Shown: positions 3,531-45,893 of the stretch, one piece after another | Position numbering within the stretch: position 1 is the stretch's first letter | How the letters are laid out: each line of letters begins with the position of its first letter | IMG/VR virus record: IMGVR_UViG_3300031087_000014 | Reading direction: 5' to 3' (one strand) | DNA length: 64,000 bases | Source of the DNA: a virus | Position numbers and translations under genes: made by a program | Notes under the pieces: model-generated | What the model was told of the DNA's origin: nothing | Databases searched by the model: none | The model's input: only the letters and a program-made list of their open reading frames with translations

Positions 3531-3939
3531 AGTTACCTCCCTCTACGTCTTCGTGCCAAGAGTTATCTTGGTCATCGTAGATAGCTACGCATTGCGTATG
3601 TTGTAGGAAAGAAGTTCTAGTCCAATCACTGAGAGCGTAGATTGAATACCACTTACCATCGATGTTGATCTGGTCAGAAAGTTGGTTGCTCCCTTGAATG
3701 AGAGGTCTAATTTCTGTTACAGTCCAGAATGTGTATTGTGCTTTAGAACGATAACCATCCGGTACAGCCTGTAGAGTGAATCCACTGATCGGTTGCAGGG
3801 ATGAAGACTCGATCACAAAATCCTCAGTTAGGATCGTATTATCTTGGTTCGAGAATACAGCATCTGTATTTTCAACGTAAGTCCTACGGCGTCCTGGGTA
3901 TTGAGTCAAGTCAAGAAGTTTAAACTGTGAAAGTAACAT
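3523..3939 (-). CDS. head closure/stopper protein
   Basis: 138 aa; SLQP...VPDG.R...DQINIDGKWY pattern; position. Confidence 0.55.
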   Translation of the reverse strand: MLLSQFKLLDLTQYPGRRRTYVENTDAVFSNQDNTILTEDFVIESSSLQPISGFTLQAVPDGYRSKAQYTFWTVTEIRPLIQGSNQLSDQINIDGKWYSIYALSDWTRTSFLQHTQCVAIYDDQDNSWHEDVEGGNFG

Positions 3940-3983
3940 TTCGTTCTCCTTTCAGTATAACCCACATTTAAAATAAATGCAAG

Positions 3984-4460
3984 TTATTTCTTAGAGATTT
4001 TAGTCTCGATGTTGTTGATCATATAAGATGAATCGATCAGGATAGTTGTGCTATTATTTCCCTTCTCTCTTCTTTTCTCCAGTGTAGTCGGAGACAGAGG
4101 AGTAAATCGTTGCATCTTAATGGCTTGGATAATACTTTCTTTCGAGATCTCTGCAATAGGTTTCATTGCGACAGTGAGACTTGTCCCTTTCAGGTACTTA
4201 TGAATTGCACCTGGCAACTGTTGTTTTAGTTTGTTCTGGGATAAAACAAAACCATCTGTCATAAATGGACGCTCAGGAATGTTTTTAGTCACACTACCAA
4301 ACTGTTGAATATTAGCTAGCTCCACCATATCAATACCTGTTTCAGGATGCTTTTTATGAGTGATGAATCCAGCTTCAACTTCAACACTTTCTAGTTCGAG
4401 ATATCTGGCAAAAATAGAATCAAGGGAACCATCAGTTCCCTTTGTAATAGTAGCTCTCAT
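3984..4460 (-). CDS. neck/tail completion protein
   Basis: ANIQQFG..NIPERPFM and PLSPTTLEKR..G...LIDS motifs; start moved to ATG 4460. Confidence 0.6.
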   Translation of the reverse strand: MRATITKGTDGSLDSIFARYLELESVEVEAGFITHKKHPETGIDMVELANIQQFGSVTKNIPERPFMTDGFVLSQNKLKQQLPGAIHKYLKGTSLTVAMKPIAEISKESIIQAIKMQRFTPLSPTTLEKRREKGNNSTTILIDSSYMINNIETKISKK

Positions 4461-14309: not shown

Positions 14310-14384
14310 TGGTTGCTCCAGCAGGTAACGATCCTGCTTCTGTCGCTTATCAGGCGACTGTAATACCTTTATACTATAGAGCAA
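14310..14384 (-). tRNA. tRNA-Ile(GAT)
   Basis: Cloverleaf; gtcgc-CTGATAA-gcgac; CCA end; T-loop variant ATCGTTA. Confidence 0.85.
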
Positions 14385-14389
14385 TTGAT

Positions 14390-14470
14390 TGGCACGTAGG
14401 TGATGATTCGAACACCTAAACTAACGGGTTTGGAAGCCGTCTCCTGACCACCAGGATTAGTGACCCACGT
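14390..14470 (-). tRNA. atypical tRNA-Trp(CCA)
   Basis: Acceptor acgtggg/cctacgt plus GCCA; TTCGAAT T-loop; loop TTCCAAA; irregular D arm. Confidence 0.6.
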
Positions 14471-14477
14471 ATTTATT

Positions 14478-14556
14478 TGGTGGAGAATAAGAGACTTGAA
14501 CTCTTCTGGTATCCTCGGTGCAAGCGAGGTGTCCACTCCTGGCAGACCCATTCCCC
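14478..14556 (-). tRNA. tRNA-Ala(TGC)
   Basis: cctcg-CTTGCAC-cgagg; G3:U70; ACCA end. Confidence 0.9.
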
Positions 14557-14561
14557 TAATT

Positions 14562-14706
14562 TGGCATCGTAGAAAGGAATCGAACCCCTCAGAGTAGGCG
14601 ATCAACTCTACCTGTGACCCTCATCACTTGGGAGATTAGCTACATCACCACCTCCGTCGAGGAAGTATCTCGTAACCATCTTTCCTTTGCTTTGTATCAC
14701 TACGAC
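14562..14706 (-). ncRNA. 145-nt tRNA-scaffold ncRNA
   Basis: Acceptor gtcgtag/ctacgat plus GCCA and TTCGATT T-arm; ~110-nt non-tRNA body. Confidence 0.65.
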
Positions 14707-14730
14707 ATTTTATTTGGTGATCATTTCATT

Positions 14731-14816
14731 TGGTACATCAGGTGAGACTCGAACTCACACGTCACAAGGACACTGGAACCTAAATCCAGGGCGTCTACCA
14801 ATTTCGCCACTGATGC
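14731..14816 (-). tRNA. tRNA-Leu(TAG)
   Basis: ctgga-TTTAGGT-tccag; long variable arm; ACCA end. Confidence 0.9.
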
Positions 14817-14823
14817 ATTTGTT

Positions 14824-14890
14824 TAGTGGAATCGTGCAGATTCGAACTGCATCCGGCTCCCTACGGGAACCAGTCACCCAAATCAATTCC
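14824..14890 (-). ncRNA. 67-nt mini tRNA-like RNA lacking a D stem
   Basis: Acceptor ggaattg/cgattcc; T-arm tgcag-TTCGAAT-ctgca; one 9-bp hairpin; ends ACTA. Confidence 0.6.
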
Positions 14891-14897
14891 GAGTGTT

Positions 14898-14979
14898 TGG
14901 AAGCGAGAGCGGAAGTCGAATCCGCAATTTTCAGGGTATGAGCCTAACGTGATCTATATATCCGTTTCACTATCTCGCT
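14898..14979 (-). tRNA. tRNA-Met(CAT)
   Basis: ttagg-CTCATAC-cctga; enlarged D loop; CCA end. Confidence 0.8.
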
Positions 14980-15063
14980 ATTGTTAAATCAGCTTTAAAC
15001 TAAAAGCATTATCCACGGCCCTATCAGACTCCTATCTTCAATTAGGGAATCGTAGCCTTGATA

Positions 15064-15136
15064 TGGTGCAGATGCAAGGATTCGAACCTCGAACAAACAC
15101 CTTCGTAGAGTGTTGCCTGTCCATCAGGACACCTGC
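15064..15136 (-). tRNA. tRNA-Arg(ACG)
   Basis: acact-CTACGAA-ggtgt; short D arm; CCA end. Confidence 0.8.
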
Positions 15137-15141
15137 AAAAA

Positions 15142-15216
15142 TGGTGCGACCTGCTGGTAACGATCCAGCCTTTCTGCCTTTTCAGGGCAGCACACATCCG
15201 TCTATGTCAAAGTCGC
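15142..15216 (-). tRNA. tRNA-Phe(GAA)
   Basis: ctgcc-CTGAAAA-ggcag; T-loop variant ATCGTTA; CCA end. Confidence 0.85.
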
Positions 15217-15250
15217 TTTGAAACCGATATCATCTTCGATTTCTATTGTT

Positions 15251-15328
15251 TGGTCAGTGCAGGGTGAATCGAACACCCGACCTCCTGCTCCCAAAGCAGG
15301 CGCTGCTACCAGGCTGAGCTATGCACTG
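15251..15328 (-). tRNA. tRNA-Pro(TGG)
   Basis: cctgc-TTTGGGA-gcagg; CCA end. Confidence 0.92.
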
Positions 15329-15334
15329 AATATT

Positions 15335-15411
15335 TGGGGTGGCTAATGGGACTCGAACCCACATAGAACTGCATCACAGGCAGCGTCATTAAGCCATTAT
15401 GATATAGCCAC
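15335..15411 (-). tRNA. tRNA-His(GTG)
   Basis: gctgc-CTGTGAT-gcagt; C73 plus CCA. Confidence 0.88.
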
Positions 15412-15443
15412 ATCTTAGTGCTCTCATTGAAAACACTAAAATT

Positions 15444-15518
15444 TGGCAGAGGTGAGAGGAGTTGAACCTGCTGCTACGGGAGTCAAAGGCCCGTGTGCTA
15501 CCATTACACCACACCCCT
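15444..15518 (-). tRNA. tRNA-Gln(TTG)
   Basis: Loop CTTTGAC; GCCA end. Confidence 0.88.
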
Positions 15519-15524
15519 AGTATT

Positions 15525-15669
15525 TGGCGAACAGGAAGGAGTCGAACCTTCGTACACATCCTTTGGCGAGGCTATGTATTCTTGAATGCCCATACTAATT
15601 ATGTTTTGTTAGTCAAACAAGCGCCAACTTGCGAACCCTAACGCTACACTTTCATATTGCATCTATCCG
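15525..15669 (-). ncRNA. second 145-nt tRNA-scaffold ncRNA
   Basis: cggatag/ctgttcg end pairing plus CCA; T-arm gaagg-TTCGACT-ccttc; no canonical anticodon arm. Confidence 0.6.
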
Positions 15670-15675
15670 ATAATT

Positions 15676-15747
15676 TGTTGAAGCTAGAAGATAAATCTTC
15701 ATTTGTCAATCTCGGAAGTGACAAGTTTTGCATTAAACTATAGCTTC
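15676..15747 (-). ncRNA. remodelled or degenerate tRNA-like element
   Basis: gaagcta/tagcttc acceptor; D stem; ttgtca/tgacaa stem with 10-nt loop; T stem with 4-nt loop; ends AACA. Confidence 0.55.
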
Positions 15748-15753
15748 TTTTTT

Positions 15754-15841
15754 TGGTATCGTGGACGGGATTCGAACCCGTAAGCAGAAAACTGCGCCAG
15801 ATTGAAAGTCTGGTTACTTAGGCCAATTTGTATACCACGAT
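15754..15841 (-). tRNA. tRNA with TTC (Glu) anticodon and long variable arm
   Basis: ccaga-CTTTCAA-tctgg; gcag-tttt-ctgc variable hairpin; A73 plus CCA. Confidence 0.85.
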
Positions 15842-15847
15842 ATAATT

Positions 15848-15924
15848 TGGAGCGAGATATCGGATTCGAACCGATGACGAACTGCTTGGAAGGCAGACAC
15901 TCTACCAGACTGAGTTAAACTCGC
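15848..15924 (-). tRNA. tRNA-Gly(TCC)
   Basis: Loop CTTCCAA; U73 plus CCA. Confidence 0.92.
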
Positions 15925-16050
15925 AATGTTGAAGGGCTAGCTGTGTGCTGCATATAGAGACATTGCACACCCACGCTGTAAATATTCTCGTTGGAAAACA
16001 CTTACAGAGATCTCTACTGGTATCCAGTTATTCCCCTTCTTGGGATACTC

Positions 16051-16101
16051 CGCGCTACGCTTCACAGCGTTTCGTCTTATTTCAAAGACTCATCAGGCGC
16101 G
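16051..16101 (-). ncRNA. type I hammerhead ribozyme core
   Basis: cgcgc-CTGATGA-gtctt(tgaaat)aagac-GAAA-cgct(gtga)agcg-TA-gcgcg; all core nucleotides and three stems present. Confidence 0.9.
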
Positions 16102-16434
16102 TTTGCTTGATAATATACGATCACGTAGACCTTTTATGTGCCGTCGCGGTCACAACCTGTTATGATAAATCACAGTGCAGGTAGGGGAGAGGGTATAACA
16201 TTTCTGCTATCTCGTGTCGCCCTCTCTAAACAACCTCCATCACTAAAGACTGGACGCTATTGTTATTTGTGGGACAGTGACGGATATCCCTTTGCTGACT
16301 AGGCTACGTTCGGGACTGCTACCTTACAATGTTACAAGCTGTTGCGAATAACTCTGCTCGGTGCTCTCGACAAGAAGTACCCGCTGATACTATGCTCTTG
16401 TCATCCATACTCGCGGTCAAGCTTTCTGGTCATC

Positions 16435-16510
16435 TGGTGCTTGCAGCAGGACTTGAACCCGCGACCCACTGATTACAAAACAGTAGCTCTACCAACTGAG
16501 CTATACAAGC
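16435..16510 (-). tRNA. tRNA-Thr(TGT)
   Basis: Loop TTTGTAA; ACCA end. Confidence 0.92.
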
Positions 16511-16511
16511 T

Positions 16512-16685
16512 TTATCTTAATGGAATACCTTTGTATTCTCTTGAACGTATCAGTGCTTCTCTTCGTTTACGAGCTTCACGTTTTACGTTGTTTGGTGAAC
16601 GAGGATATTCACTGTAGACTTGAAAAGTTCTATTAACTTCTCTTGGTTCATCAAAGGAACCTATGGTCTGCTTCTGGAATGTCAT
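16512..16685 (-). CDS. small basic hypothetical protein (57 aa)
   Basis: AGGAG RBS, ATG at 16685; lies between tRNA-Asn and tRNA-Thr. Confidence 0.6.
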   Translation of the reverse strand: MTFQKQTIGSFDEPREVNRTFQVYSEYPRSPNNVKREARKRREALIRSREYKGIPLR

Positions 16686-16700
16686 ATCATTCTCCTGTAT

Positions 16701-16778
16701 TGGCGATCCTAGCAGGACTCGAACCTGCAACCGGTGGATTAACAGTCCACTGCTCTAACCAATTATAGCTATAGAATC
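16701..16778 (-). tRNA. tRNA-Asn(GTT)
   Basis: gtgga-CTGTTAA-tccac; GCCA end. Confidence 0.92.
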
Positions 16779-16784
16779 ATTGTT

Positions 16785-16869
16785 TGGTGAAATCTACTTT
16801 TCGAGCTTGTATCCCCGAAGGACTGAGTGATATAGATCACGCCATCTCGTCTTCCCTTATTTCGATTTC
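16785..16869 (-). ncRNA. 85-nt CCA-ended non-tRNA RNA
   Basis: gaaatc/gatttc plus ACCA; inner cgag/ctcg stem closing gtgat-ctat-atcac and a cTTCGg hairpin; no T-loop. Confidence 0.45.
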
Positions 16870-16875
16870 ATTATT

Positions 16876-16957
16876 TGGTGGGGCTGCCTGGATTCGAACC
16901 AGGGCGTGGTATGCCTGATTTACAGTCAGGTGCGTTCGGCCTCTCCGCCACATCCCC
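16876..16957 (-). tRNA. tRNA-Tyr(GTA)
   Basis: cctga-CTGTAAA-tcagg; ACCA end. Confidence 0.92.
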
Positions 16958-17025
16958 TTAAACTTTATTTATCAATACTATATCATAAAAGTATTCAGAA
17001 GTAAAGATTTATTTTACTTTTTGTT

Positions 17026-17102
17026 TGGTGCATCGCGGAGGATTCGAACCTCCAGTATTCTGATTAAAAGTCAGATGCCTTATCCAGTTTAGCTAGCGAT
17101 GC
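17026..17102 (-). tRNA. tRNA-Lys(TTT)
   Basis: tctga-CTTTTAA-tcaga; ACCA end. Confidence 0.92.
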
Positions 17103-17103
17103 G

Positions 17104-17197
17104 TGGAGGAGAATATCAGACTTGAACTGATACGCCGCGTTTCCGCGACTACTGAGTGTTTAGCAAACACTTCCCTTACCGTTAGGGTTAATTCTCC
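17104..17197 (-). tRNA. tRNA-Ser(GCT)
   Basis: agtgt-TTGCTAA-acact; long variable arm. Confidence 0.9.
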
Positions 17198-17238
17198 GTT
17201 ACTTCTTATCGGTGTGATTTCTCACTCAATATCTTAGT

Positions 17239-17314
17239 TGGCGGGGATAGAGGAAATCGAATCCTCGGCTCCGCAGTGACAGTGCGGTATTTTTACCAAC
17301 TAAACTATATCCCC
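17239..17314 (-). tRNA. tRNA-Asp(GTC)
   Basis: ccgca-CTGTCAC-tgcgg; GCCA end. Confidence 0.92.
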
Positions 17315-17320
17315 TTAATT

Positions 17321-17411
17321 TGGAGGAAGGTAATGGAGTCGAACCATCATCGGCTATTAACCGATGGGCTGGTTTTCAAGACCAGTTACTCACCGCTGAG
17401 TCCTACCTTCC
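17321..17411 (-). tRNA. tRNA-Ser(TGA)
   Basis: ctggt-CTTGAAA-accag; long variable arm. Confidence 0.9.
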
Positions 17412-17452
17412 TTTAAGTAGTTGTTAACTAACAATCTTCTCTACTTAATACC

Positions 17453-17481
17453 AATGTACCACGTATTTGATTGTCTGTCAA
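17453..17481 (-). promoter_or_regulatory. sigma70-like promoter for the tRNA array
   Basis: TTGACA-17-TACATT. Confidence 0.65.
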
Positions 17482-17498
17482 CAACTATTTTAAACTAT

Positions 17499-17678
17499 TT
17501 ACTGCTTGGTAGAACGAGCGCGTTCACGCTTAGTTTTACCAGTACGGATGCGGTGAGACACTTTCTTCACTTCGCCGTTGATGGTAATTTCAACTGGCTT
17601 ACTTTCAGTCTGAGTAGACTTGCTCTCAAACTGGAAAGGCTGAATGATTTTGTCTACTGCGCTTACTTTCTTACCCAT
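17499..17678 (-). CDS. small basic hypothetical protein (59 aa)
   Basis: AAGGAG RBS, ATG at 17678 (MGKKVSAV...). Confidence 0.6.
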   Translation of the reverse strand: MGKKVSAVDKIIQPFQFESKSTQTESKPVEITINGEVKKVSHRIRTGKTKRERARSTKQ

Positions 17679-17877
17679 TATGTCTCTCCTTATATGATTT
17701 ATTTTTAAATTGTGCCTCTCTGTCGCCATAAGCGAGGCTACTTACTATGATCGGAAAACAAAAAGTTACAATAACTTTTAAAAACGATGGCTTGTATATT
17801 TCATTAAGTTGTGCTCGACAAGAAGGCTAGTCTACAAACGCTACAACTTTAAATCAACGCATATACCAGACGCAAAC

Positions 17878-17954
17878 TGGCACTCCGTGAGGGATTCGAA
17901 CCCCCAACCTAGAGAGTAGAAATCTCTTGCGCTATCCAATTGCGCTAACGGAGC
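17878..17954 (-). tRNA. tRNA-Arg(TCT)
   Basis: agaga-TTTCTAC-tctct; GCCA end. Confidence 0.92.
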
Positions 17955-20156: not shown

Positions 20157-21866
20157 TTATTTCAGATACTTGCTCACCGTTTCATCCAAGATGCAGCGAA
20201 CTTCGTCGATACTTACGTCAACAACCATTTGGCTATTGCGGAAGATTTCTTTCAGTTCATTGCGCTCTGACGAGATATCGGAGAAAGACAAACCATCTTC
20301 CAATACCAGATCTCCATCTGGGCTAGCCACTACAGCCAAGAATCCACGAGCAGAACGTTTACCTAAGTCGGTTTTTGGTTCCTTGCTTACAAGAATCTCG
20401 TTACCGTCAATGATACAACCTGTAGCTTTACAAGCAAAGCCGAAAGTATCACGAGTGCTGTAGTTGTAAGTGTAACTACCAACACCAAGAACGATATTGC
20501 TCGATGCAAAACCATTCGCCTCCAGACGTTTGAAGATTTCCTTGGTCAGACTAACAGTAATACTGTCACCGTAGATCAGGCCAATATGTTCATCCAGAAC
20601 TTTGTAGCCCTTACTGTTGACAGTGCCGCCAAAGGTTTCCCACAGAATCTGAATAGTACCTACAGCTTCGTGACGGGGAATCTCATATACTTCGTTGATG
20701 CTGGCGTTAATGGTACGATCACCAGTAATATCGTAGTATTTGTCACGGTCTTCCAGGTAAATAACTTCTGTACTAATTCCAACACTCGAAGTCTGCATTG
20801 TCTGCCAATCTTTGAAGCTTTCAATCTTGTAACCGCAAATAATATGCAGGGGCTTACCGCTATCTGGACGGATAACTAATTTACCGTCACGTTCCATAAT
20901 CTCTTCTTTCAAGAGAGGAAGGATCTCAGTGACCAGCGCCCAATAGTCATAACTATCTGCCACGTAAGACACGATGCCGTCAGGGTAAATCTGAGTGACA
21001 TACTTACGCAAGAATTCCAGTTCAGAGAAGAAGCGTTGTTCATCAACGTTCATTGCTGCAAAACCATCAACTTCGATCATCAGTTTAGCCAAGATATCAC
21101 TAATGTTGGTGGTAGCTACGCTGTGTTCTGATGCTGGGATGCTTCCAGCTACAAAGGTATCTTCGCCGTAGTAGAAATCATCTACGTAGCAAACTGCACG
21201 TAATGTGTCAGTACCTTTAAATGCCAGTAAGTGACCGAAGCCTGAACGATAGCCATCATCGATACCAGATAAGCCACGAGCAGAGAAATCGTGAAACTGG
21301 AAGGCTAAGTGATCTTTGCTGTCACAAGTAGATTCAGCGTAAGACTCACCCAGCAGACGATACTGGAATGCGATAGTCGCATTGTTCATTGTCTTCCAGG
21401 TTTCTGCACTCAGCATAGTTTCCAGATAGTTCACCAACCAAGCAAAGCCTGCTACTGTATTGTGAATCGTATAAACTGGAACCTGAATCGGACACAGTAC
21501 ACCTTCTGGTAGCGCTCGTACAGACAGAGGCAAATAACCTAAGTCGTGCAGTGCTTCGATGTGATCAGTGCGATTCTGACGACCGTTATAGCGAGTCATA
21601 AACTTAGAGTATTCCGCAACGACTTCATCTTTTGGACGAGAGAAGAAGTTTTCATTCCAATCGTCAATCAGTCGTTCTTTAATCACGCCCTGGATACCAG
21701 CAGCAATTACGCCGCGAGGTGCATTAGGTGCGTAATGCGGGAAGTACTTATCACCGCGAGGGGTGAAGTTAGAAAACAGGATTTCCATATTGTCAGCGTA
21801 CTGGTCAATGTGGCTTGGTTTGTAACCGTCAGTGTTGAACAGTGGGTTTTTAATACGTTTAGCCAT
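20157..21866 (-). CDS. NAMPT-like enzyme (Namat of NARP1-type NAD+ reconstitution)
   Basis: TDGYKPSH, FHDFSARG, IPASEHS, VIRPDSG, GLIYGDSI and RDTFGFA motifs. Confidence 0.9.
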   Translation of the reverse strand: MAKRIKNPLFNTDGYKPSHIDQYADNMEILFSNFTPRGDKYFPHYAPNAPRGVIAAGIQGVIKERLIDDWNENFFSRPKDEVVAEYSKFMTRYNGRQNRTDHIEALHDLGYLPLSVRALPEGVLCPIQVPVYTIHNTVAGFAWLVNYLETMLSAETWKTMNNATIAFQYRLLGESYAESTCDSKDHLAFQFHDFSARGLSGIDDGYRSGFGHLLAFKGTDTLRAVCYVDDFYYGEDTFVAGSIPASEHSVATTNISDILAKLMIEVDGFAAMNVDEQRFFSELEFLRKYVTQIYPDGIVSYVADSYDYWALVTEILPLLKEEIMERDGKLVIRPDSGKPLHIICGYKIESFKDWQTMQTSSVGISTEVIYLEDRDKYYDITGDRTINASINEVYEIPRHEAVGTIQILWETFGGTVNSKGYKVLDEHIGLIYGDSITVSLTKEIFKRLEANGFASSNIVLGVGSYTYNYSTRDTFGFACKATGCIIDGNEILVSKEPKTDLGKRSARGFLAVVASPDGDLVLEDGLSFSDISSERNELKEIFRNSQMVVDVSIDEVRCILDETVSKYLK

Positions 21867-21929
21867 AATCATATCTCCTTTTCGTTTTCGATAGGGAGAG
21901 TCTACACCCTCCCTGATTATTGTCAATAC

Positions 21930-22820
21930 TTAGTTGTAGTATTTGTTCAAAATAACACGGCGACTGATCCCCTGGTTTAGTACGAGGATATCTTGGTCAA
22001 TCTCAACATTATCTTTCCAGACGTTAAGAGAGTGTACGCGGTCAATGATACCTTCCAGAGGACGAAGCCCTTTAGAGAAAATACCGTGAGTTACGTAGAG
22101 ATCTACACGTCCTGCGTTACGACTCTTGAGAAGTTCAGCTAGTTTGATGAATGTATAGCCGCCGTCACAGATATCATCCACGATGATTAGATTTCGACCT
22201 TTGAAGTCTTGGACAGAAATATCTGTGTGTTTGATAGCTCCAGTAGCAGTATCACGAATCTTTTCAGCACAGTAAACATCTACTCCACCTAATTCTTTCG
22301 CAACCTTGAAGATTTTCTTCAAAGCGCCAGCGTCAGGAGACACGATAGCGAAGTTATCCATTGGGATGTAGTGTCCCAGCATTTCTTTCACAATCTTCTC
22401 TTGTGGAATGATGGTGAGTCGGTCGATCAGTGCCGGAGTAACGTCACTGTGCGGATCTGCAATTACCACCTCTTCAAAGTCCCAGCTATTGATGATATTA
22501 GCAAACACCTTAAGCCCGAATGCCTCTCCTGCTTCACAAGGGCGATCCTGACGACCGTAAGGAACGTAGAGCATAATCAGCTTCACTGGAACACGGAAGT
22601 GAGCACAACGCGATATAGCGTCTTTAATCATACCTACTCGCATAAGGTCATCACTGCTGCGGATTTCTGCTTCAATAATCACTTCATCACCGTAAGAGAT
22701 TTCCTTTAATGCTTCTGGCAGAACAATGTGTTCTTCCCCAGCAGAGAATCGGAAAGACTTAACAGGACACTCAATCGTGTTCATATTAAAACCTAACATA
22801 GTGCGGATACTTACTTTCAT
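21930..22820 (-). CDS. ribose-phosphate pyrophosphokinase-like enzyme (Adps of NARP1-type pathway)
   Basis: FSAGE, YVPYGRQDR, DPHS, VSPDAGA and IVDDICDGGYT motifs. Confidence 0.9.
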   Translation of the reverse strand: MKVSIRTMLGFNMNTIECPVKSFRFSAGEEHIVLPEALKEISYGDEVIIEAEIRSSDDLMRVGMIKDAISRCAHFRVPVKLIMLYVPYGRQDRPCEAGEAFGLKVFANIINSWDFEEVVIADPHSDVTPALIDRLTIIPQEKIVKEMLGHYIPMDNFAIVSPDAGALKKIFKVAKELGGVDVYCAEKIRDTATGAIKHTDISVQDFKGRNLIIVDDICDGGYTFIKLAELLKSRNAGRVDLYVTHGIFSKGLRPLEGIIDRVHSLNVWKDNVEIDQDILVLNQGISRRVILNKYYN

Positions 22821-26529: not shown

Positions 26530-26886
26530 ATGAAACCAGACACTATCCTGTGGTTGGATGATGTACGTGACCCTAAAAACTTTGGTATGGAAGGTGCTGT
26601 CTGGATCAAGACATTCTCAGACTTCGAAAATACTCTTCATACCTTGATCGAAGCGATGCAGGATGATAATATCGTTCACATCAGTTTTGATAATGACCTG
26701 GGCACTGAGGAAGAAGGGTATGATGGATTCTGTATCTTGGAGGAGTATCTTCATATGGGATACTTCGAAGGGCTGAAAAAGATCACAGTACATTCATCAA
26801 ACCCTAGCGCAGTTCATAAGTTTATGTTAGTATCTCGGGCAATGAAGGCTCACTTTGATATTGACCTTTTACGTACACCACTTTGA
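26530..26886 (+). CDS. cyclic-phosphate-processing receiver-like domain protein
   Basis: LWLDDVRDP, ISFDNDLG and VHSSNP motifs. Confidence 0.7.
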   Translation: MKPDTILWLDDVRDPKNFGMEGAVWIKTFSDFENTLHTLIEAMQDDNIVHISFDNDLGTEEEGYDGFCILEEYLHMGYFEGLKKITVHSSNPSAVHKFMLVSRAMKAHFDIDLLRTPL

Positions 26887-26895
26887 GGAGTAATT

Positions 26896-27810
26896 ATGAT
26901 TGACGTTAGCGTAGTTCTGGAATACCTTAAGGATTACCGCGAAGAACTGAAACAACCTATGGATCGTGTGCTGGCAAGAAAGGCATTGTTCACCAACGGT
27001 GTTCCAGTAATGAGCTTCGAGGAGATGGTTTCCTTTGATAGTGATGTTTTCGACGAAATGTTTGAATACTACATCACAACAGGACGTAAGCCAAGTCGCC
27101 GCCCTATATTGGAGCGTATTTACCCTTGGTTTGGATATGTAAAAGGTAATGTGTATTGGGGCAAAGCTGTAGATGTTGAGCGGCGTGCTCTGAGAAAAAT
27201 GCAGATGAAAGACTTGCATTACTCGGAGGATAATGTACACTTCGTATCGGATGTTCATTTCTTGCATAAGAATATCATCCATCACAACCGAAACAACATC
27301 TCAAACATTGATGAAATGCATCATCTGCTGATTGAAGCGTGGAACAAACAAGTGGGGCCAAACGATTTGGTGTTTGACTTGGGGGATCTCACCTTGGGTA
27401 GTATGACTAAGGGATTGGAATTACTTAAGCAGTTGAATGGCTTTATTATTCATCTGAAAGGAAACCACGTTAGTGAAAAGGAATGGGAGTATTACGATAT
27501 GAATCTCCCTAAACAAAAGTTTGTTGACAGTAGCTACTTATGCAGTACAATCAACGGGCAGAAGATTGCAATGTGTCACTTCCCGATTCTGAGTTGGGAC
27601 GATATGCACCGCGATAGCTGGCACCTGTTTGGTCACTGTCACGGAAGTAATGCAATGGAGCAGCATATGGGCAAGGCGATGGATGTTGGAGTAGATGCAA
27701 CTGTAGGCATTACTGAATCACTCCGTCCTGTCTCTATGGCAGAAGTAAGAACAGTTATGGCTGGCAAAAGAATTGTTAGCTGGGATCATCACGAAGTAGG
27801 AGGAAACTAA
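26896..27810 (+). CDS. calcineurin-like metallophosphoesterase
   Basis: SDVHF, LGD, GNH and GHCHG motifs. Confidence 0.85.
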   Translation: MIDVSVVLEYLKDYREELKQPMDRVLARKALFTNGVPVMSFEEMVSFDSDVFDEMFEYYITTGRKPSRRPILERIYPWFGYVKGNVYWGKAVDVERRALRKMQMKDLHYSEDNVHFVSDVHFLHKNIIHHNRNNISNIDEMHHLLIEAWNKQVGPNDLVFDLGDLTLGSMTKGLELLKQLNGFIIHLKGNHVSEKEWEYYDMNLPKQKFVDSSYLCSTINGQKIAMCHFPILSWDDMHRDSWHLFGHCHGSNAMEQHMGKAMDVGVDATVGITESLRPVSMAEVRTVMAGKRIVSWDHHEVGGN

Positions 27811-27811
27811 T

Positions 27812-28834
27812 ATGAGCAATATCAAATACCCGAGCACAAACCAGTTCCGTCAGGTAGTTAAGACAATGAAAACTCAACTGGAGTATGATCATTATAATCC
27901 AGAGACGCAGGAACACGTCACAAAGATTCCAGAAACGTATGTGATCCCTTACATCGGTACTGTGAAGATTCACGGCACCAACGGTAGCGTACTTTTCCGC
28001 TCAGAAACTGATTTCATCTTCCAATCAAAAGCCCAGCAGGTAGACATTGGGAAAGATAATGCCGGATTTGCAGCGTTTATGCATCGCAAAGATATGGATC
28101 TTCTGCTGGCGCGAGTACGTAAAGTATGTGAGGATCATAACGTAACATTTGAGTTCCCTGTCGAGATTGCTGGAGAGTGGGCAGGTCGTGGTATTCAGAA
28201 AGGCGTTGCTGTTACTGAGGTTGAACCATTCTTCGCTGTATTCCGTGTTGCAGTAGGTGAGCGTCCTAATGGCGGTCTGAAATGGCTTCCGACAGATATC
28301 ATCGGGCCAGTGTCTGATAATGAAAACCGGATCTTCAACATTCTACAGTTTGGCTTTGTTCCACTGGAGATTGACTTTGAAAATCCTCAGAATGTACAGA
28401 ACACCCTCGTATCTCTGACAGAAGAAGCAGAGAAAGAATGTCCGGCAGGTAAGTTCTTTGGTGTGTCTGGTATCGGTGAAGGTTATGTTTGGACTCCTGC
28501 TGATCCATCTCTGGCTATTGACTCTGGCTTGTGGTTTAAAGTGAAAGGCGATAAGCACTCTGTTTCTAAGGTTAAGACCTTGGCGGCAGTAGACCCTGAA
28601 CGTATGGCAAACATCGCTGAGTTTGTGGAATATGCCGTAACTGAAAATCGTCTGGAGCAGGCTCTGGGTGAAGTAGGCTTGGATAAGACCAAGATCGGAG
28701 AGTTTGTTAAGTGGATGTCTACAGACATTCTTAAAGAGGAAGGCGATGTTATGGAAGCCTCCGCTCTAACAATGAAAGATGTTGGTAAGAACATCTCTGA
28801 TAAATCCCGTAAATGGTATATGGCTAAACTGTAA
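27812..28834 (+). CDS. RNA ligase 2-like protein
   Basis: KIHGTN motif I; GEWAG; GEGYV; FKVK. Confidence 0.8.
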   Translation: MSNIKYPSTNQFRQVVKTMKTQLEYDHYNPETQEHVTKIPETYVIPYIGTVKIHGTNGSVLFRSETDFIFQSKAQQVDIGKDNAGFAAFMHRKDMDLLLARVRKVCEDHNVTFEFPVEIAGEWAGRGIQKGVAVTEVEPFFAVFRVAVGERPNGGLKWLPTDIIGPVSDNENRIFNILQFGFVPLEIDFENPQNVQNTLVSLTEEAEKECPAGKFFGVSGIGEGYVWTPADPSLAIDSGLWFKVKGDKHSVSKVKTLAAVDPERMANIAEFVEYAVTENRLEQALGEVGLDKTKIGEFVKWMSTDILKEEGDVMEASALTMKDVGKNISDKSRKWYMAKL

Positions 28835-28847
28835 GAGGAGAATTAAA

Positions 28848-29972
28848 ATGCAAGTAACTGACTTCCTGAAAACACCTGGTAACTCTCTGACCCTGTTAAC
28901 TCTGTCTACAGGCATAAAAGTGAAAGAATATCCAGAAGAGGGCTTATACGTCCTAAACTATGACCAGATAGATAGTCCAAAGACACATCCTCTGGTTATG
29001 GAGTGCCGAGCACTGATCCTTGACAGGGAGTTTAATGTGGTTGCTCGTTCATTTGACCGATTCTTCAACCTGAATGAAGCGCCGGATACACAGGCGCATT
29101 TAGATTGGGATATTGCTGAGATTGCTGATAAAGTAGATGGTAGTCTAATCAAACTGTACTACTGGAACGGTGCTTGGCGCTTCTCTACTCGTGGCACAGC
29201 ATTTGCTGAAAGCCAGTGTATGAATAGTGAATACACATTCCACGATCTTTGCGTCAAAGCTTCTAACGCTAGTTATATGGAAGAGGTAGAGGCGTCAGCA
29301 GAACTGGCTGATCTTGACCAGGGAGTTACATACCTACTGGAGCTTACTTGTCGTGAAAACCGAGTGGTAACAGTATATGAGGGCTATCATCTGCACTTCT
29401 TAGGTGCTCGTCGTAATGACACTGGTGAATATGTGACTGTCCCTAATAGTGCATTATGGGTGATGAACTGGAAAGCTGTTAATAAGTATAAGTTTAACAG
29501 TGCTCAAGCTTGTAAAGAGACAGCCGAAAAGCTTCCTAATCTGGCAGAAGGTTATGTTGTTTACCAGAATGGCATCCCTGTTTGTAAGGTGAAGTCTCCA
29601 GCATACGTTGCTGTCCACCATCTCCGAGGTAACGGTATCCCTTCTTTGAAGCGTATTGTTGATTTGGTTGCTGTGGGTGAAGAAGACGAGTATCTTACTT
29701 ACTTCCCAGAGGACAGAAAGTACTTTGATCCGGTGACTCAAGCTAAGGCTTGGATTATCAATCAGGCTGATGCTATGTGGCACGTAGCTAAAGATATTGA
29801 GGAACAGAAGAAGTTTGCCATTGTGGTGAAAGATCTGTCCTTTGCTTGGTTGCTGTTTCAAGCAAGAAAGGTAAACAAGGAGCCGTCTGAGGTGTTCAAC
29901 TCCGCTCCGCTGGAGAAGCGATCTAAGACAATCCTGAACTATGTCGAAAAAGCAGGGAATGCTTTGAAATAA
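28848..29972 (+). CDS. RNA ligase 1 (T4 RnlA-like)
   Basis: ECRALI, RFFN, KVDGSLI, EGYV and KVKS motifs; start MQVTD at 28848. Confidence 0.85.
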   Translation: MQVTDFLKTPGNSLTLLTLSTGIKVKEYPEEGLYVLNYDQIDSPKTHPLVMECRALILDREFNVVARSFDRFFNLNEAPDTQAHLDWDIAEIADKVDGSLIKLYYWNGAWRFSTRGTAFAESQCMNSEYTFHDLCVKASNASYMEEVEASAELADLDQGVTYLLELTCRENRVVTVYEGYHLHFLGARRNDTGEYVTVPNSALWVMNWKAVNKYKFNSAQACKETAEKLPNLAEGYVVYQNGIPVCKVKSPAYVAVHHLRGNGIPSLKRIVDLVAVGEEDEYLTYFPEDRKYFDPVTQAKAWIINQADAMWHVAKDIEEQKKFAIVVKDLSFAWLLFQARKVNKEPSEVFNSAPLEKRSKTILNYVEKAGNALK

Positions 29973-29981
29973 GGAGGAAAA

Positions 29982-30386
29982 TTGAAGAATTTCTATATCA
30001 TTCGTGGTGTATCTGGGAGTGGCAAGTCCACTCTCGCTAAAACAATGTCTGAGGCTCTTGGAGCTTCACATTTAGAAGCTGATATGCTGCTATACAATAA
30101 CCAAGGAGAATACGTCTGGACAAAAGAAGGCGTATCTGAGGCACATCGACAGACTGCGATTCATCTGTATCACTTAATGGAGTCAGGTGAGTCTAATATA
30201 ATTCTGTCCGATACCTCTGCAAAACAAAAAGATATGCAAAAATACCTTGATCTGGCTAAAGAGAAGGGTTACACTACGACAGTGATTGTAGTTGAGAACC
30301 GTCACGGCGGTAAGTCCATTCACGATGTAAGCGAGGAAACACTAGCTAAACAACGTGATCGTATCCGAAGCACTATTTCACTCTAA
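29982..30386 (+). CDS. P-loop kinase (polynucleotide kinase-like)
   Basis: RGVSGSGKST; directly after the RNA ligases. Confidence 0.7.
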   Translation: MKNFYIIRGVSGSGKSTLAKTMSEALGASHLEADMLLYNNQGEYVWTKEGVSEAHRQTAIHLYHLMESGESNIILSDTSAKQKDMQKYLDLAKEKGYTTTVIVVENRHGGKSIHDVSEETLAKQRDRIRSTISL

Positions 30387-43580: not shown

Positions 43581-45893
43581 TTGATTAACTTCGTAACAAA
43601 AGCTAATGGTAAGAAAGAACCTTTTAATCCAGAGAAACTTCGTAAATGGTCTGACTTTGCAAAAAAGATCAAGCGGAATAAAGGTAAAGTTAGCTGGAGT
43701 GAGATCGAGTTAGAAGCAGTCAAACGTGGGTATGACGGAATGCCCACTTCCGAACTGCATAACGCTATGATTTCAGCTTGTATCAGCAAACAAACACAAC
43801 CATACGCAGATTTCGCAGCGCGGCTTCTGATTGGTCGTCTGTATAAACAAGCACACGGAGGTTTCAGTAAGATTCCTTCTCTGCTTGAGTTTTATAACAC
43901 CAGTGTAAAATCTGAATACTGGATTGATATGGATTACACCGAAGAAGAGATCAACGCTCTCGGGAAAGTAATTGACCATAACAAAAACTTGGATTATGAT
44001 TACAGCGTCTTACGTCAGATGGAAGATAAATATCTGGTGCGTGATGTAATCAACGGAGTAGTACACGAAACTCCTCAGTTCCTGTTTATGGGCCTGGCGA
44101 TGAAAGTGATGGAGAAGCAGCCTAAAGAAACTCGTCTTCTGGATGTTACTCAACTGTACACATACACCAGCGATTTGAAGATCAACCTGCCGTCTCCGTA
44201 TCTGACAACAGTACGTACTCGGATCTTGGGTAGCGCTTCTTGCTGTCTGTTCCGTGCAGATGATACTGCTCAGTCTCAGCGTATCGCTAATACGATTGCT
44301 CACGAGTATACACTGAATAACGCAGGTATTGGTGTTAACATCTCTACTCGTGCTACAGGCCAGGGCGTAAAGAATAACCGAATCGTTCACGGCGGTATGC
44401 TTCCTTACCTTCGTTGGATGGAGAGCAGCGTTGGTGCGTCGAAACAAGCCTCTCGTGGTGGTAGTGCAACAATTACGTTCACCTGCTTGGAGCCGGACTT
44501 TGATGACCTTGTACGACTGAAAAACCCAACTACACCAAATAACAAACGTGTAGATAAACTGGACTACTCAGTTGTGGTGAATAACGCATTCCTTCGTCGT
44601 GCAGCACAAGGCAAGGAGTGGATGCTGGTGAGTGTTAACGAAGCTCCAGAACTGTATGATGCGCTCTACGCCTCAGAAGAAGAGTTTGAGGAAGTATATG
44701 AGCTTGTAAGTCGTAAACGAATCAAGAAGACTGTGGTTAAGGCTCGTGATATGCTGGTGGAAATCATCAAGCAACGTGCAGAGACCGGACGTATTTATAT
44801 TTTCTTCGCAGATAACGTAAACCGTCATACACCTTTCTTGGACACGATCTTCCAGTCAAATTTGTGTCAGGAAATCTTCTTGCCTACAAAGGCATTCCAG
44901 AAAATGAGTGATCTGGATACTGGTGAGAATACTGATACATCAGAACTGGCGCTGTGCTTCCTAGCTTCTATCGTTGCAGGACGTGTTACTCCAGAAGAAT
45001 ACGAGGATGTTGCTTACTACACAGTATTAACGATTGACAACATTATCGAAGATATGGTGTATCCATTCTATCATAATGAAGTAACAGCTAAGGCTCGTCG
45101 CTCTATTGGTGTTGGTATCACAAACCTAGCTCACTATCTGGCAGCAAGCGATGCATCTTATACCGATGAAAAAGGTAAGGTGTTAATGCACGAACTGGCT
45201 GAACGTCATTACTTCTGGTTGGCTAAAGCCTCTCTTCGCTTAGGTAAAGAGAAAGGTAATGCCGAGTGGATGGATAAAACCAAGTGGCCTCAAGGTTGGT
45301 TGCCTATTGACACTTACTCTAAAGCTGTTGATGACATTGCAGACTTTGAGTTGAAGATGGATTGGGAAACTCTCCGTTCAGAGATTATTGCTAATGGTGG
45401 TATCCGTAACAGTGTTCTAACAGCAGTTGCACCGAATGAATCATCTTCTTTGGTGAGTAATACAACAAACAGTCTGTACCCTGTGCGTGACACAATTATC
45501 TTTAAGCAAAGTCAGAAAGGTAACGTGCTATTCATCGTTCCTGAATATGATCGACTGAAAGATAAATACCAGATTGCCTGGGATGTACCTCATAAGCATA
45601 TGGCTGAATGCTACGGCATCTTCACTAAGTTTATGGATCAGGGTATCTCTTGTGATGAATGGGCTGACTACACCAAGTCAGAAGACGGAAAACTGTCTTA
45701 CAAGACGGAGATTCAGTTTATCCTGACAATGGCTAAGCTGGGGGCTAAATCTCTGTACTATATGAACAGCCGCACCAAATCCTCTGAAACAATGGCAGAT
45801 CAAGATCTTAAAGCCTTGGGTATGGAAGCAAATGCACTTGAACAGCTTCCTGACGAAGAGGAAGAAGATGGTTGTGAAGCGTGTAAAATGTGA
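43581..45893 (+). CDS. nrdA: ribonucleotide reductase class I alpha subunit
   Basis: ATP cone; ASCCL; QSNLCQEI; SLYY; C-terminal CEAC. Confidence 0.95.
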   Translation: MINFVTKANGKKEPFNPEKLRKWSDFAKKIKRNKGKVSWSEIELEAVKRGYDGMPTSELHNAMISACISKQTQPYADFAARLLIGRLYKQAHGGFSKIPSLLEFYNTSVKSEYWIDMDYTEEEINALGKVIDHNKNLDYDYSVLRQMEDKYLVRDVINGVVHETPQFLFMGLAMKVMEKQPKETRLLDVTQLYTYTSDLKINLPSPYLTTVRTRILGSASCCLFRADDTAQSQRIANTIAHEYTLNNAGIGVNISTRATGQGVKNNRIVHGGMLPYLRWMESSVGASKQASRGGSATITFTCLEPDFDDLVRLKNPTTPNNKRVDKLDYSVVVNNAFLRRAAQGKEWMLVSVNEAPELYDALYASEEEFEEVYELVSRKRIKKTVVKARDMLVEIIKQRAETGRIYIFFADNVNRHTPFLDTIFQSNLCQEIFLPTKAFQKMSDLDTGENTDTSELALCFLASIVAGRVTPEEYEDVAYYTVLTIDNIIEDMVYPFYHNEVTAKARRSIGVGITNLAHYLAASDASYTDEKGKVLMHELAERHYFWLAKASLRLGKEKGNAEWMDKTKWPQGWLPIDTYSKAVDDIADFELKMDWETLRSEIIANGGIRNSVLTAVAPNESSSLVSNTTNSLYPVRDTIIFKQSQKGNVLFIVPEYDRLKDKYQIAWDVPHKHMAECYGIFTKFMDQGISCDEWADYTKSEDGKLSYKTEIQFILTMAKLGAKSLYYMNSRTKSSETMADQDLKALGMEANALEQLPDEEEEDGCEACKM

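Follow-up and report, generated by a model that had tools for sequence, protein, structure and literature searches.

A Spacer in a Phage tRNA Gene Array That Probably Combines Two Unrelated Structured RNA Cassettes, One of Them with a Hammerhead Ribozyme

Location and Coding Content of the Spacer

The window, which is the complete stretch of 64,000 nucleotides analyzed here, belongs to a 141-kb IMG/VR virus record (IMGVR_UViG_3300031087_000014) with an estimated completeness of 96%. Its DNA is present in phyllosphere metagenomes, and its replication genes share ~67% identity with their counterparts from phages of Enterobacteriaceae and Pseudomonas that have genomes of 140-155 kb. ARAGORN identified in the window an array of 18 tRNA genes (positions 14310-17954) that are all encoded by the minus strand. 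The 510 bases of the same strand found between the genes of tRNA-Thr and tRNA-Gly (15925-16434) are the spacer described in this work, and the order in which the RNA is read is thus tRNA-Thr, spacer, tRNA-Gly. The features of the spacer and those used for comparison are listed in Table 1.

Several observations concern the surroundings of the spacer. Rfam calls a tRNA at positions 14901-14979 (minus strand; 51.2 bits) where ARAGORN reports none. Further long gaps are found on the minus strand of the array at 17412-17877, 16511-16700, 15519-15753, and 14557-14730 (466, 190, 235, and 174 nt, respectively), and further non-tRNA RNAs may be encoded inside them. A minus-strand ORF of 72 aa (16512-16730) overlaps tRNA-Asn and is probably spurious. 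Outside of the array, genes coding for a NAPRTase-family protein (589 aa) and a phosphoribosyl-pyrophosphate-synthetase-like protein (296 aa) adjoin each other (20157-22820, minus strand), a pair that resembles the pathways with which phages rebuild NAD+ against defences that deplete it.

The longest ORFs found in the minus strand of the spacer have 42 and 33 aa, and no open frame runs across the element in the 16 homologues of its 5′ part (module A; see below), in agreement with the sequence-only reading that had seen no credible sense-strand ORF. The minimum free energy (MFE) of the minus (sense) strand is -160.2 kcal/mol (z = -3.92), a value that none of 100 shuffled sequences equalled. The fold of the plus strand has a z of -0.96. 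These data support a non-coding spacer that folds better than shuffled sequences on the tRNA strand alone. All seven helices proposed by the sequence-only reading were located in the sequence at matching coordinates. Five of them (gacaaga/tcttgtc, gggata/tgtccc, gtatcc/ggatac, a 14-bp hairpin, and tgtgc/gcaca) are conserved or covary in homologues; the remaining two (gagaggg/ccctctc and acctg/caggt) lie within a stretch missing from the closest relative, locus L035. The scan of the spacer minus strand for promoters and terminators found no site resembling either, a result with which transcription of the spacer together with the tRNAs fits.

The Rfam search of the whole window at gathering scores returned only tRNAs, and no family matched either of the two modules defined below, in line with the sequence-only reading, which could not assign the RNA to a known family. 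When E-values up to 10 were accepted for positions 15700-16700, the only relevant matches were tRNAs and a sub-threshold hammerhead; weak matches to Plastid-ycf2 (antisense of tRNA-Thr), snoRNAs, and mir-255 were discarded as noise. A literature search found no paper describing the hammerhead-linked RNA or module A.

Table 1. Features of the tRNA-Thr/tRNA-Gly spacer, of the RNA end-repair gene cluster, and of the loci used for comparison. Coordinates are those of the window unless a locus is named.
Feature	Coordinates	Strand	Remarks
tRNA-Thr (UGU)	16435-16510	-	Upstream spacer boundary; encoded CCA; ARAGORN; Rfam tRNA 66.1 bits
Module A	16269-16434	-	~165-nt multi-helix RNA; 16 distinct homologues, covariation
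Module A 5′ start	within 16269-16434	-	GAAAG-CUUGAC, then GAGUA
P2a (gacaaga/tcttgtc)	16396-16402/16369-16375	-	Module A
P2b hairpin	loop 16381-16386	-	Module A; conserved loop CAGCGG
P3 hairpin	3′ of P2b	-	Module A; variable
CCGAACGUAG	16304-16313	-	Module A, between P3 and P4
P4 small hairpin	loop 16296-16302	-	Module A; loop CUAGUCA
P5 3′ hairpin (gggata/tgtccc)	16285-16290/16271-16276	-	Module A
Linker B	16116-16268	-	Putative non-conserved filler; replaced in L035; no homologue
gagaggg/ccctctc hairpin	16220-16226/16187-16193	-	Linker B
acctg/caggt	16178-16182/16155-16159	-	Linker B
Module C	15925-16115	-	Leader, type I hammerhead, and 131-nt double-pseudoknot RNA
14-nt leader UAUUAUCAAGCAAA	16102-16115	-	Conserved with L019, there directly after CCA of tRNA-Thr
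Type I hammerhead ribozyme	16056-16101	-	Core, stems, covariation; cut predicted between 16056 and 16055
131-nt double-pseudoknot RNA	15925-16055	-	Predicted ends: hammerhead cut (5′), RNase P at tRNA-Gly (3′)
Pa	16043-16048/16020-16025	-	Invariant
Pf (GGG with CCC)	16034-16036/15934-15936	-	Loop of Pa with 3′ tail; invariant in 15-sequence set
Pc pseudoknot	16012-16017/15954-15959	-	Strand after Pa with loop of Pd; 4 covarying pairs
Pe, 14-bp hairpin	15976-16007	-	7 covarying pairs
Pd (tgtgc/gcaca)	15965-15970/15943-15948	-	2 covarying pairs
tRNA-Gly (UCC)	15848-15924	-	Downstream spacer boundary; ARAGORN; Rfam 60.9 bits
cREC_REC cyclic-phosphate receiver domain	26530-26886	+	Pfam
304-aa ORF		+	Between cREC_REC and RNA_ligase genes; no assignment
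RNA_ligase PF09414 protein	27812-28834	+	Pfam
T4 Rnl1-type ligase	28779-29972	+	Pfam
P-loop kinase	29982-30386	+	Pfam
Lambda comparison	L044:930-1180 (lambda 44729-44979)		Compared with the two following loci
	L020:3880-4260	-
	L025:6001-6281
Circularly permuted module C	L009:11205-11440	-
	L040:446-681	+
	L041:1037-1272	+

Division of the Spacer into Separately Matching Parts

BLAST against 50,697 phage records splits the spacer into parts that match separately. Near its 5′ end is a stretch with matches in phAPEC8-like phages, again in Thr-Gly spacers, and the alignment showed that the first ~165 nt following tRNA-Thr are common to phAPEC8 and FKP3. For the last ~175 nt the matches fall in intergenic DNA and come from podophages that are small and unrelated (Pectobacterium phages Pappous and Taid, Dickeya phage Setonix, and Enterobacter phage SDFMU_EhYP). 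The parts were named module A, linker B, and module C (Table 1). Their folds have z values of -2.40 (A), -1.96 (B; borderline, 7 of 200 shuffles being as good), and -3.28 (C). Module A is found in phAPEC8, FKP3, and 12 further loci that lack C, module C without A in L019, an X19 contig, podophages, and lambdoid prophages, and the two occur together with differing linkers.

The sequence-only reading had described the spacer as one structured non-coding RNA that hosts a hammerhead, for which the large tRNA-associated GOLLD and ROOL RNAs were given as a precedent. In the form considered here, the ~510 nt would be excised by processing of the flanking tRNAs and would cut themselves into two cooperating pieces. 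The fold score, better than that of shuffles on the sense strand only, and a spacer in which no internal promoter or terminator was found are consistent with this proposal, and GOLLD and ROOL often lie near phage tRNAs (PMC5737381). However, the parts exist separately in other genomes, the middle third is not conserved in L035, and no GOLLD or ROOL model of Rfam matched at E-values up to 10. The long-range pairings between A, B, and C seen in the MFE structure of the 510 nt use strands of the conserved local helices and therefore compete with them. The separate occurrence of A and C, together with the non-conserved middle, argues against one GOLLD/ROOL-like RNA of ~500 nt, a possibility that is largely refuted and that we regard as very improbable. 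What stands from the earlier description is a non-coding, structured spacer with a consensus type I hammerhead; its single large RNA does not, given that the parts evolve separately. The GOLLD/ROOL analogy is valid for the genomic context only, as the spacer is neither conserved as one unit nor matched by the respective models. We thus consider a mosaic origin of the spacer likely: two structured-RNA cassettes, each self-contained and unrelated to the other, would have been juxtaposed by recombination, with a non-conserved linker between them.

Module A

Pattern scans of IMG/VR and metagenomes extended the set of module A homologues, from related 140-155-kb phages, to 16 distinct sequences (139-224 nt). 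According to nhmmer the module is present in a single copy in the window. RNAalifold applied to a plain MAFFT alignment (alignment A3) predicted three helices with 14 pairs that are 96.8% paired in the homologues. Nine of the 14 pairs display compensatory changes, a result matched by none of 500 shuffles, and control positions slid along the alignment are only 33-51% paired. Complementarity of P2a and P2b is maintained through 6-8 different sequences in the helix table, in which P2a was located by a finder that selects the best helix; its variants include GACAAGA/UCUUGUC, GAUUGG/CCAAUC, GAUGGGG/UCCCAUC, and UGUCAGG/CCUGAUG. The strands of the junction (GGAGUAG, UCGAC, and CCGRACGUAGG) and the loops (GANCGG, UAGUCA, and CGUCAC) are conserved. 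A U:G pair of P5 is invariant in all 16 homologues. Covariation outside the hammerhead core, on which the sequence-only reading had made its proposal depend, is therefore present in module A and, as described below, in module C.

A UGAC/GUCA long-range pairing and loop contacts are candidate features of module A, and the bases involved are invariant. A fourth pair of a possible pseudoknot, between the loop CGG and the CCG that precedes ACGUAG, is inconsistent across lineages. The possibility that module A is a small protein gene was rejected: no frame is conserved and the length differences between homologues are not multiples of three.

In most loci module A is preceded by tRNA-Thr (the distance to the tRNA being 75-95 nt in phAPEC8, L027, and L033), in L029, L032, and L039 by tRNA-Ser(GCU), and in one case no tRNA is found nearby. 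Its downstream neighbours are more diverse. A sigma70-like promoter and tRNA-Gly follow in nine loci. In phAPEC8 and FKP3 the promoter is TTGACA-18-TAGAGT/TATAGT, followed by tRNA-Gly, and there is no hammerhead. Another tRNA is found in other cases, and module C in the window and in L035. A Shine-Dalgarno (SD) sequence and an ORF follow in five loci (L028, L029, L031, L034, and L039). In L028 (~3900-4340, minus strand), L034, and L029/L039 this is a small ORF with its own SD, and 10-15 nt separate its start from the module's 3′ hairpin. Judged from this arrangement, module A can also be placed at the 5′ side of a protein gene, i.e., as a putative 5′ leader.

Module C: Hammerhead Ribozyme and Double Pseudoknot

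The ribozyme of module C is composed of the stem I 5′ strand CGCGC, the core CUGAUGA, stem II (GUCUU/AAGAC), GAAA, and stem III (ACGCU/AGCGU). All three stems are formed in the MFE fold. The window has the canonical core C3 U4 G5 A6 N7 G8 A9 ... G12 A13 A14 and the A15.1-U16.1 pair, and the core is invariant in 15 homologues except for N7 (U/C/A) and H17 (A/C), which are the two free positions. The cleavage triplet is GUA in the lineage of the window and GUC in others, both of the NUH type. Stems II and III show compensatory changes. Stem I (CGCGC/GCGCG) has only 5 bp, is 100% paired, and is open, which is the type I topology. The 30.9 bits of Rfam Hammerhead_3 (E = 2e-4) fall short of its gathering score, 48.5, and the model was aligned in the wrong topology; it was reported as the best match, lower-scoring members of the clan being suppressed. 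By its sequence features the ribozyme is an ordinary member of the type I hammerheads, despite a score below the Rfam threshold. The predicted cut would yield pieces of 379 and 131 nt, the sizes of ~380 and ~130 nt foreseen by the sequence-only reading.

The RNA downstream of the cut adopts a double pseudoknot of ~125 nt with a 45-nt nearly invariant core. Alignment A5, composed of 15 distinct module C sequences of the standard arrangement only, contains 45 pairs in eight helices, including the pseudoknots, that are 99.4% paired. Compensatory changes were found for 16 pairs, none of 500 shuffles matched this result, and slid controls are 35-49% paired. Pf changes from GGGG/GCCC to AGAG/GUCU in the permuted copies of L040 and L041 (see below). 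A G:U pair of Pc is invariant in all 15 sequences; only the tRNA strand fits the invariant G-U pairs of Pc and P5. The module C of L035 differs from the one of the window by a single base, at the free position N7 (CUGAUGAG vs CUGACGAG).

Short contigs related to the 131-nt part were found in three metatranscriptome studies, where they cover positions 15910-16047, 15945-16099, and 15840-16024. These contigs (assembled in Logan) come from relatives of module C, possibly include DNA, and cannot show RNA ends or levels. Modules A and B are not covered by them, which does not argue against transcripts of these parts. The one covering 15910-16047 is a 138-nt insert between adapters with a depth of 135; its start lies 8 nt inside the predicted cut, a weak hint of self-cleavage.

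Module C in Other Genomes

Exact and gapped patterns derived from its most conserved stretch retrieved module C from 21 IMG/VR loci. L019 is an 83-kb phage contig whose tRNA order is that of the window; its module C starts 14 nt after the CCA of tRNA-Thr, and modules A and B are absent from this Thr spacer. In Pectobacterium phage Pappous the module is found just upstream of tRNA-Met and in the autographivirus SDFMU_EhYP between the capsid and tail-tube genes. Of 5426 complete E. coli genomes, 404 also carry module C, which lacks an annotation there and is placed between the antiterminator Q and holin genes of lambdoid prophages; 97 of the E. coli places are on plasmids. Alignment with lambda revealed identical flanks. 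Just after the tR′ terminator, the cassette takes the place of exactly those 37 nt that are flanked in lambda by the two strands of the stem, ACAACAGGTAAGAGCATTG / CAGTGCTCTTTCCGTTGTG. This position makes module C part of the late leader (Q-antiterminated), ahead of the lysis genes. A search of GTDB species-representative genomes gave one match (L045, a Chloroflexia MAG), which lies inside a coding region and was discarded as a chance match.

Three loci (L009, L040, and L041) carry circularly permuted copies of module C, with no tRNA within 1.5 kb. Their order is 3′ half, linker, hammerhead, cut, and 5′ half, and nhmmer aligned profile positions 135-184 upstream of positions 16-110. The 14-bp hairpin Pe is opened in these copies and becomes a perfect terminal helix formed by the two ends. 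In every arrangement, permuted ones included, the hammerhead nick is placed before the same GCGCGG.

Linker B and Assembly of the Mosaic

The closest relative of the spacer, the metagenome contig L035, has a diverged module A, ~65 unrelated nt, and then module C; both helices of linker B are thus absent from it. BLAST of linker B against the phage collection gave no match, its own genome has it only once, and exact 18-mer matches in IMG/VR (L042 and L043) were attributed to chance in GC-rich coding DNA. The comparison with L035 and these negative searches make filler the leading reading of linker B, which may alternatively be a lineage-specific RNA. A lack of homologues and a borderline fold score are also what would be expected if the complete spacer were decayed DNA devoid of function, i.e., remnants of tRNA genes or of insertions whose helices formed by chance. 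Such an origin is extremely improbable for the whole: distant phages share modules A and C, whose compensatory changes far exceed those of shuffled and slid controls. Decay is therefore refuted for A and C and is the leading reading for B alone.

Segment 1168-1680 of L035 carries a different, phAPEC8-like tRNA-Thr immediately followed by an HNH endonuclease gene (a 136-aa ORF, 1229-1639, if read from an upstream GTG; ~132 aa from ATG). Past this gene only the 3′ part of a tRNA-Thr of the window type is found, and then module A. The arrangement looks like a replacement at the edge of the cassette driven by a homing endonuclease. The tRNA array of FKP3 also has an HNH gene, and the presence of such genes in the two arrays suggests how cassettes get shuffled. 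The juxtaposition of the cassettes in the window was likely driven by a homing-endonuclease traffic like the one of these relatives.

Processing and Possible Roles of the Cassettes

The complete spacer is probably transcribed together with the tRNAs. Processing of the tRNA-Thr 3′ end would free the 5′ end of module A, the type I hammerhead would self-cut between 16056 and 16055, and the RNase P cut at the 5′ end of tRNA-Gly, as expected from established tRNA processing, would set the 3′ end of the 131-nt RNA. The predicted products are the 131-nt double-pseudoknot RNA, with a 5′-hydroxyl end, and a 379-nt piece. Conservation within this piece is limited to its 5′ portion, module A (~165 nt), to which it is probably trimmed. 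The hammerhead of module C would then serve to provide an exact, free 5′ end (GCGCGG). We infer that each cassette is most likely released independently as a stable, abundant late RNA that would act in trans, either by binding proteins or as a decoy.

The main rival of a stable trans-acting RNA is a role in cis, in which the modules would punctuate the tRNA operon and late transcripts. The hammerhead and its structured tail would give the downstream RNA a protected 5′-OH end and module A would mark where the upstream unit ends or is processed. Ends with a 5′-OH escape the 5′-monophosphate-dependent attack by RNase E. Furthermore, the transcripts that contain module C are always highly expressed ones, either late or tRNA transcripts, in which a tRNA or late genes closely follow the module, and module A ends in relatives with a hairpin, often a U-rich run, and then a new promoter. 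Nevertheless, the dimensions of the double pseudoknot and of its core far exceed what a protective hairpin needs, and in tRNA arrays RNase P would separate the RNA from whatever lies downstream. P5 is a weak hairpin (6 bp) with a conserved loop that was not scored by the terminator scan, and module A is also found just upstream of ORFs. A purely cis-acting function is consequently judged unlikely.

A different possibility is raised by a gene cluster of RNA end repair identified with Pfam at positions 26530-30386 (plus strand), ~10 kb from the spacer (Table 1). These enzymes are of relevance here because their substrates share the end chemistry of the hammerhead products. Module C could represent a ribozyme-nicked RNA of a new class, with a function that hinges on the end made by the hammerhead, be it through the chemistry or the topology of this end: healing-and-sealing enzymes would act on the 5′-OH and on the 2′,3′-cyclic phosphate of the leaving piece. 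Circular or re-joined RNA would be one outcome, and an RNA used as a decoy or trigger in the conflict over tRNA-cleaving defences another. The permuted copies would be two encodings of the same closed or two-piece fold. Other hosts possess RtcB. Module A would be in this case a second new RNA class of large enterobacterial phages, unrelated to the first. However, the small phages and the prophages that carry module C are not seen to need a repair kit, and this combination of proposals is, in our view, decidedly doubtful. Independent release of stable RNAs that act in trans is retained as the preferred interpretation.

Significance and Comparison with Known Systems

Phage tRNA arrays are usually annotated as tRNAs and junk spacers, and one such spacer holds here two conserved, folded RNAs that are absent from databases. 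Module C travels as a cassette between very different phages: it is found in tRNA arrays of large myoviruses and in podophages, both T7-like ones and others, while ~7% of complete E. coli genomes have it in lambda-like prophages, at the late leader. Permuted forms exist as well, and the module thereby offers a tractable case for studying what hammerheads do in bacteria and phages. The probable mosaic structure corrects the tempting reading of the spacer as a new giant RNA and points to cassette exchange with neighbouring homing endonucleases as a route of spread.

Small stable RNAs other than tRNAs have a precedent in the tRNA gene cluster of phage T4, which encodes species 1 and 2 (rnaC and rnaD). 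They are co-transcribed with the phage tRNAs and released by the tRNA-processing enzymes, a likeness to the cassettes that is by description only. Species 1 and 2 are not known to contain a ribozyme.

GOLLD and ROOL (Weinberg et al. 2009, 2017; PMC5737381) are likewise structured RNAs of phages and prophages that often lie beside tRNA genes. Each is conserved as one large unit, ROOL having ~580 nt and GOLLD being larger. The spacer differs from them by the lack of a covariance-model match and by its division into two cassettes (~165 and ~190 nt), each of which moves on its own, instead of one conserved unit of 500-800 nt. The Drum RNA motif, another candidate, had no Rfam match at E-values up to 10; it is described as terminator-linked and protein-associated, not as hammerhead-linked (PMC5737381).

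Theta ribozymes, which are minimal HDV-like ribozymes found beside phage tRNAs, resemble module C in being small self-cleaving ribozymes within a phage tRNA transcript and in associating a double-pseudoknotted RNA with tRNAs. According to Kienbeck et al. 2024 (PMC10879173), they cut at the tRNA 3′ end, and tRNA maturation is their proposed role. In contrast, the cut predicted here trims neither tRNA: its distance is 379 nt to tRNA-Thr (64 nt in L019) and 131 nt to the tRNA-Gly that follows. The catalytic motif is the one of a hammerhead, and the double pseudoknot lies downstream of the cut, without the P1/P1.1 arrangement of HDV-like ribozymes. HDV-like covariance models gave no match at E-values up to 10. 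Module A was also considered as a theta/HDV-like ribozyme, as a G follows the CCA in the window, and was rejected: its first 7 nt have no P1 partner and it is not always beside a tRNA.

The closest likeness of the ribozyme itself is to the type I hammerheads of bacteria and phages (Rfam clan CL00010; PMC3088659), with which it shares the full core, the three stems, the open stem I, the GUA/GUC site, and the occurrence in intergenic RNA of phages and prophages. Hammerheads were found to flank genes in prophages by Perreault et al. 2011 (PMC3088659), where the partner RNA reported here is not described. Unlike those known type I hammerheads, the one of module C is always fused to one double-pseudoknot RNA of ~125-130 nt, the 5′ end of which would be made by the ribozyme, permuted copies included.
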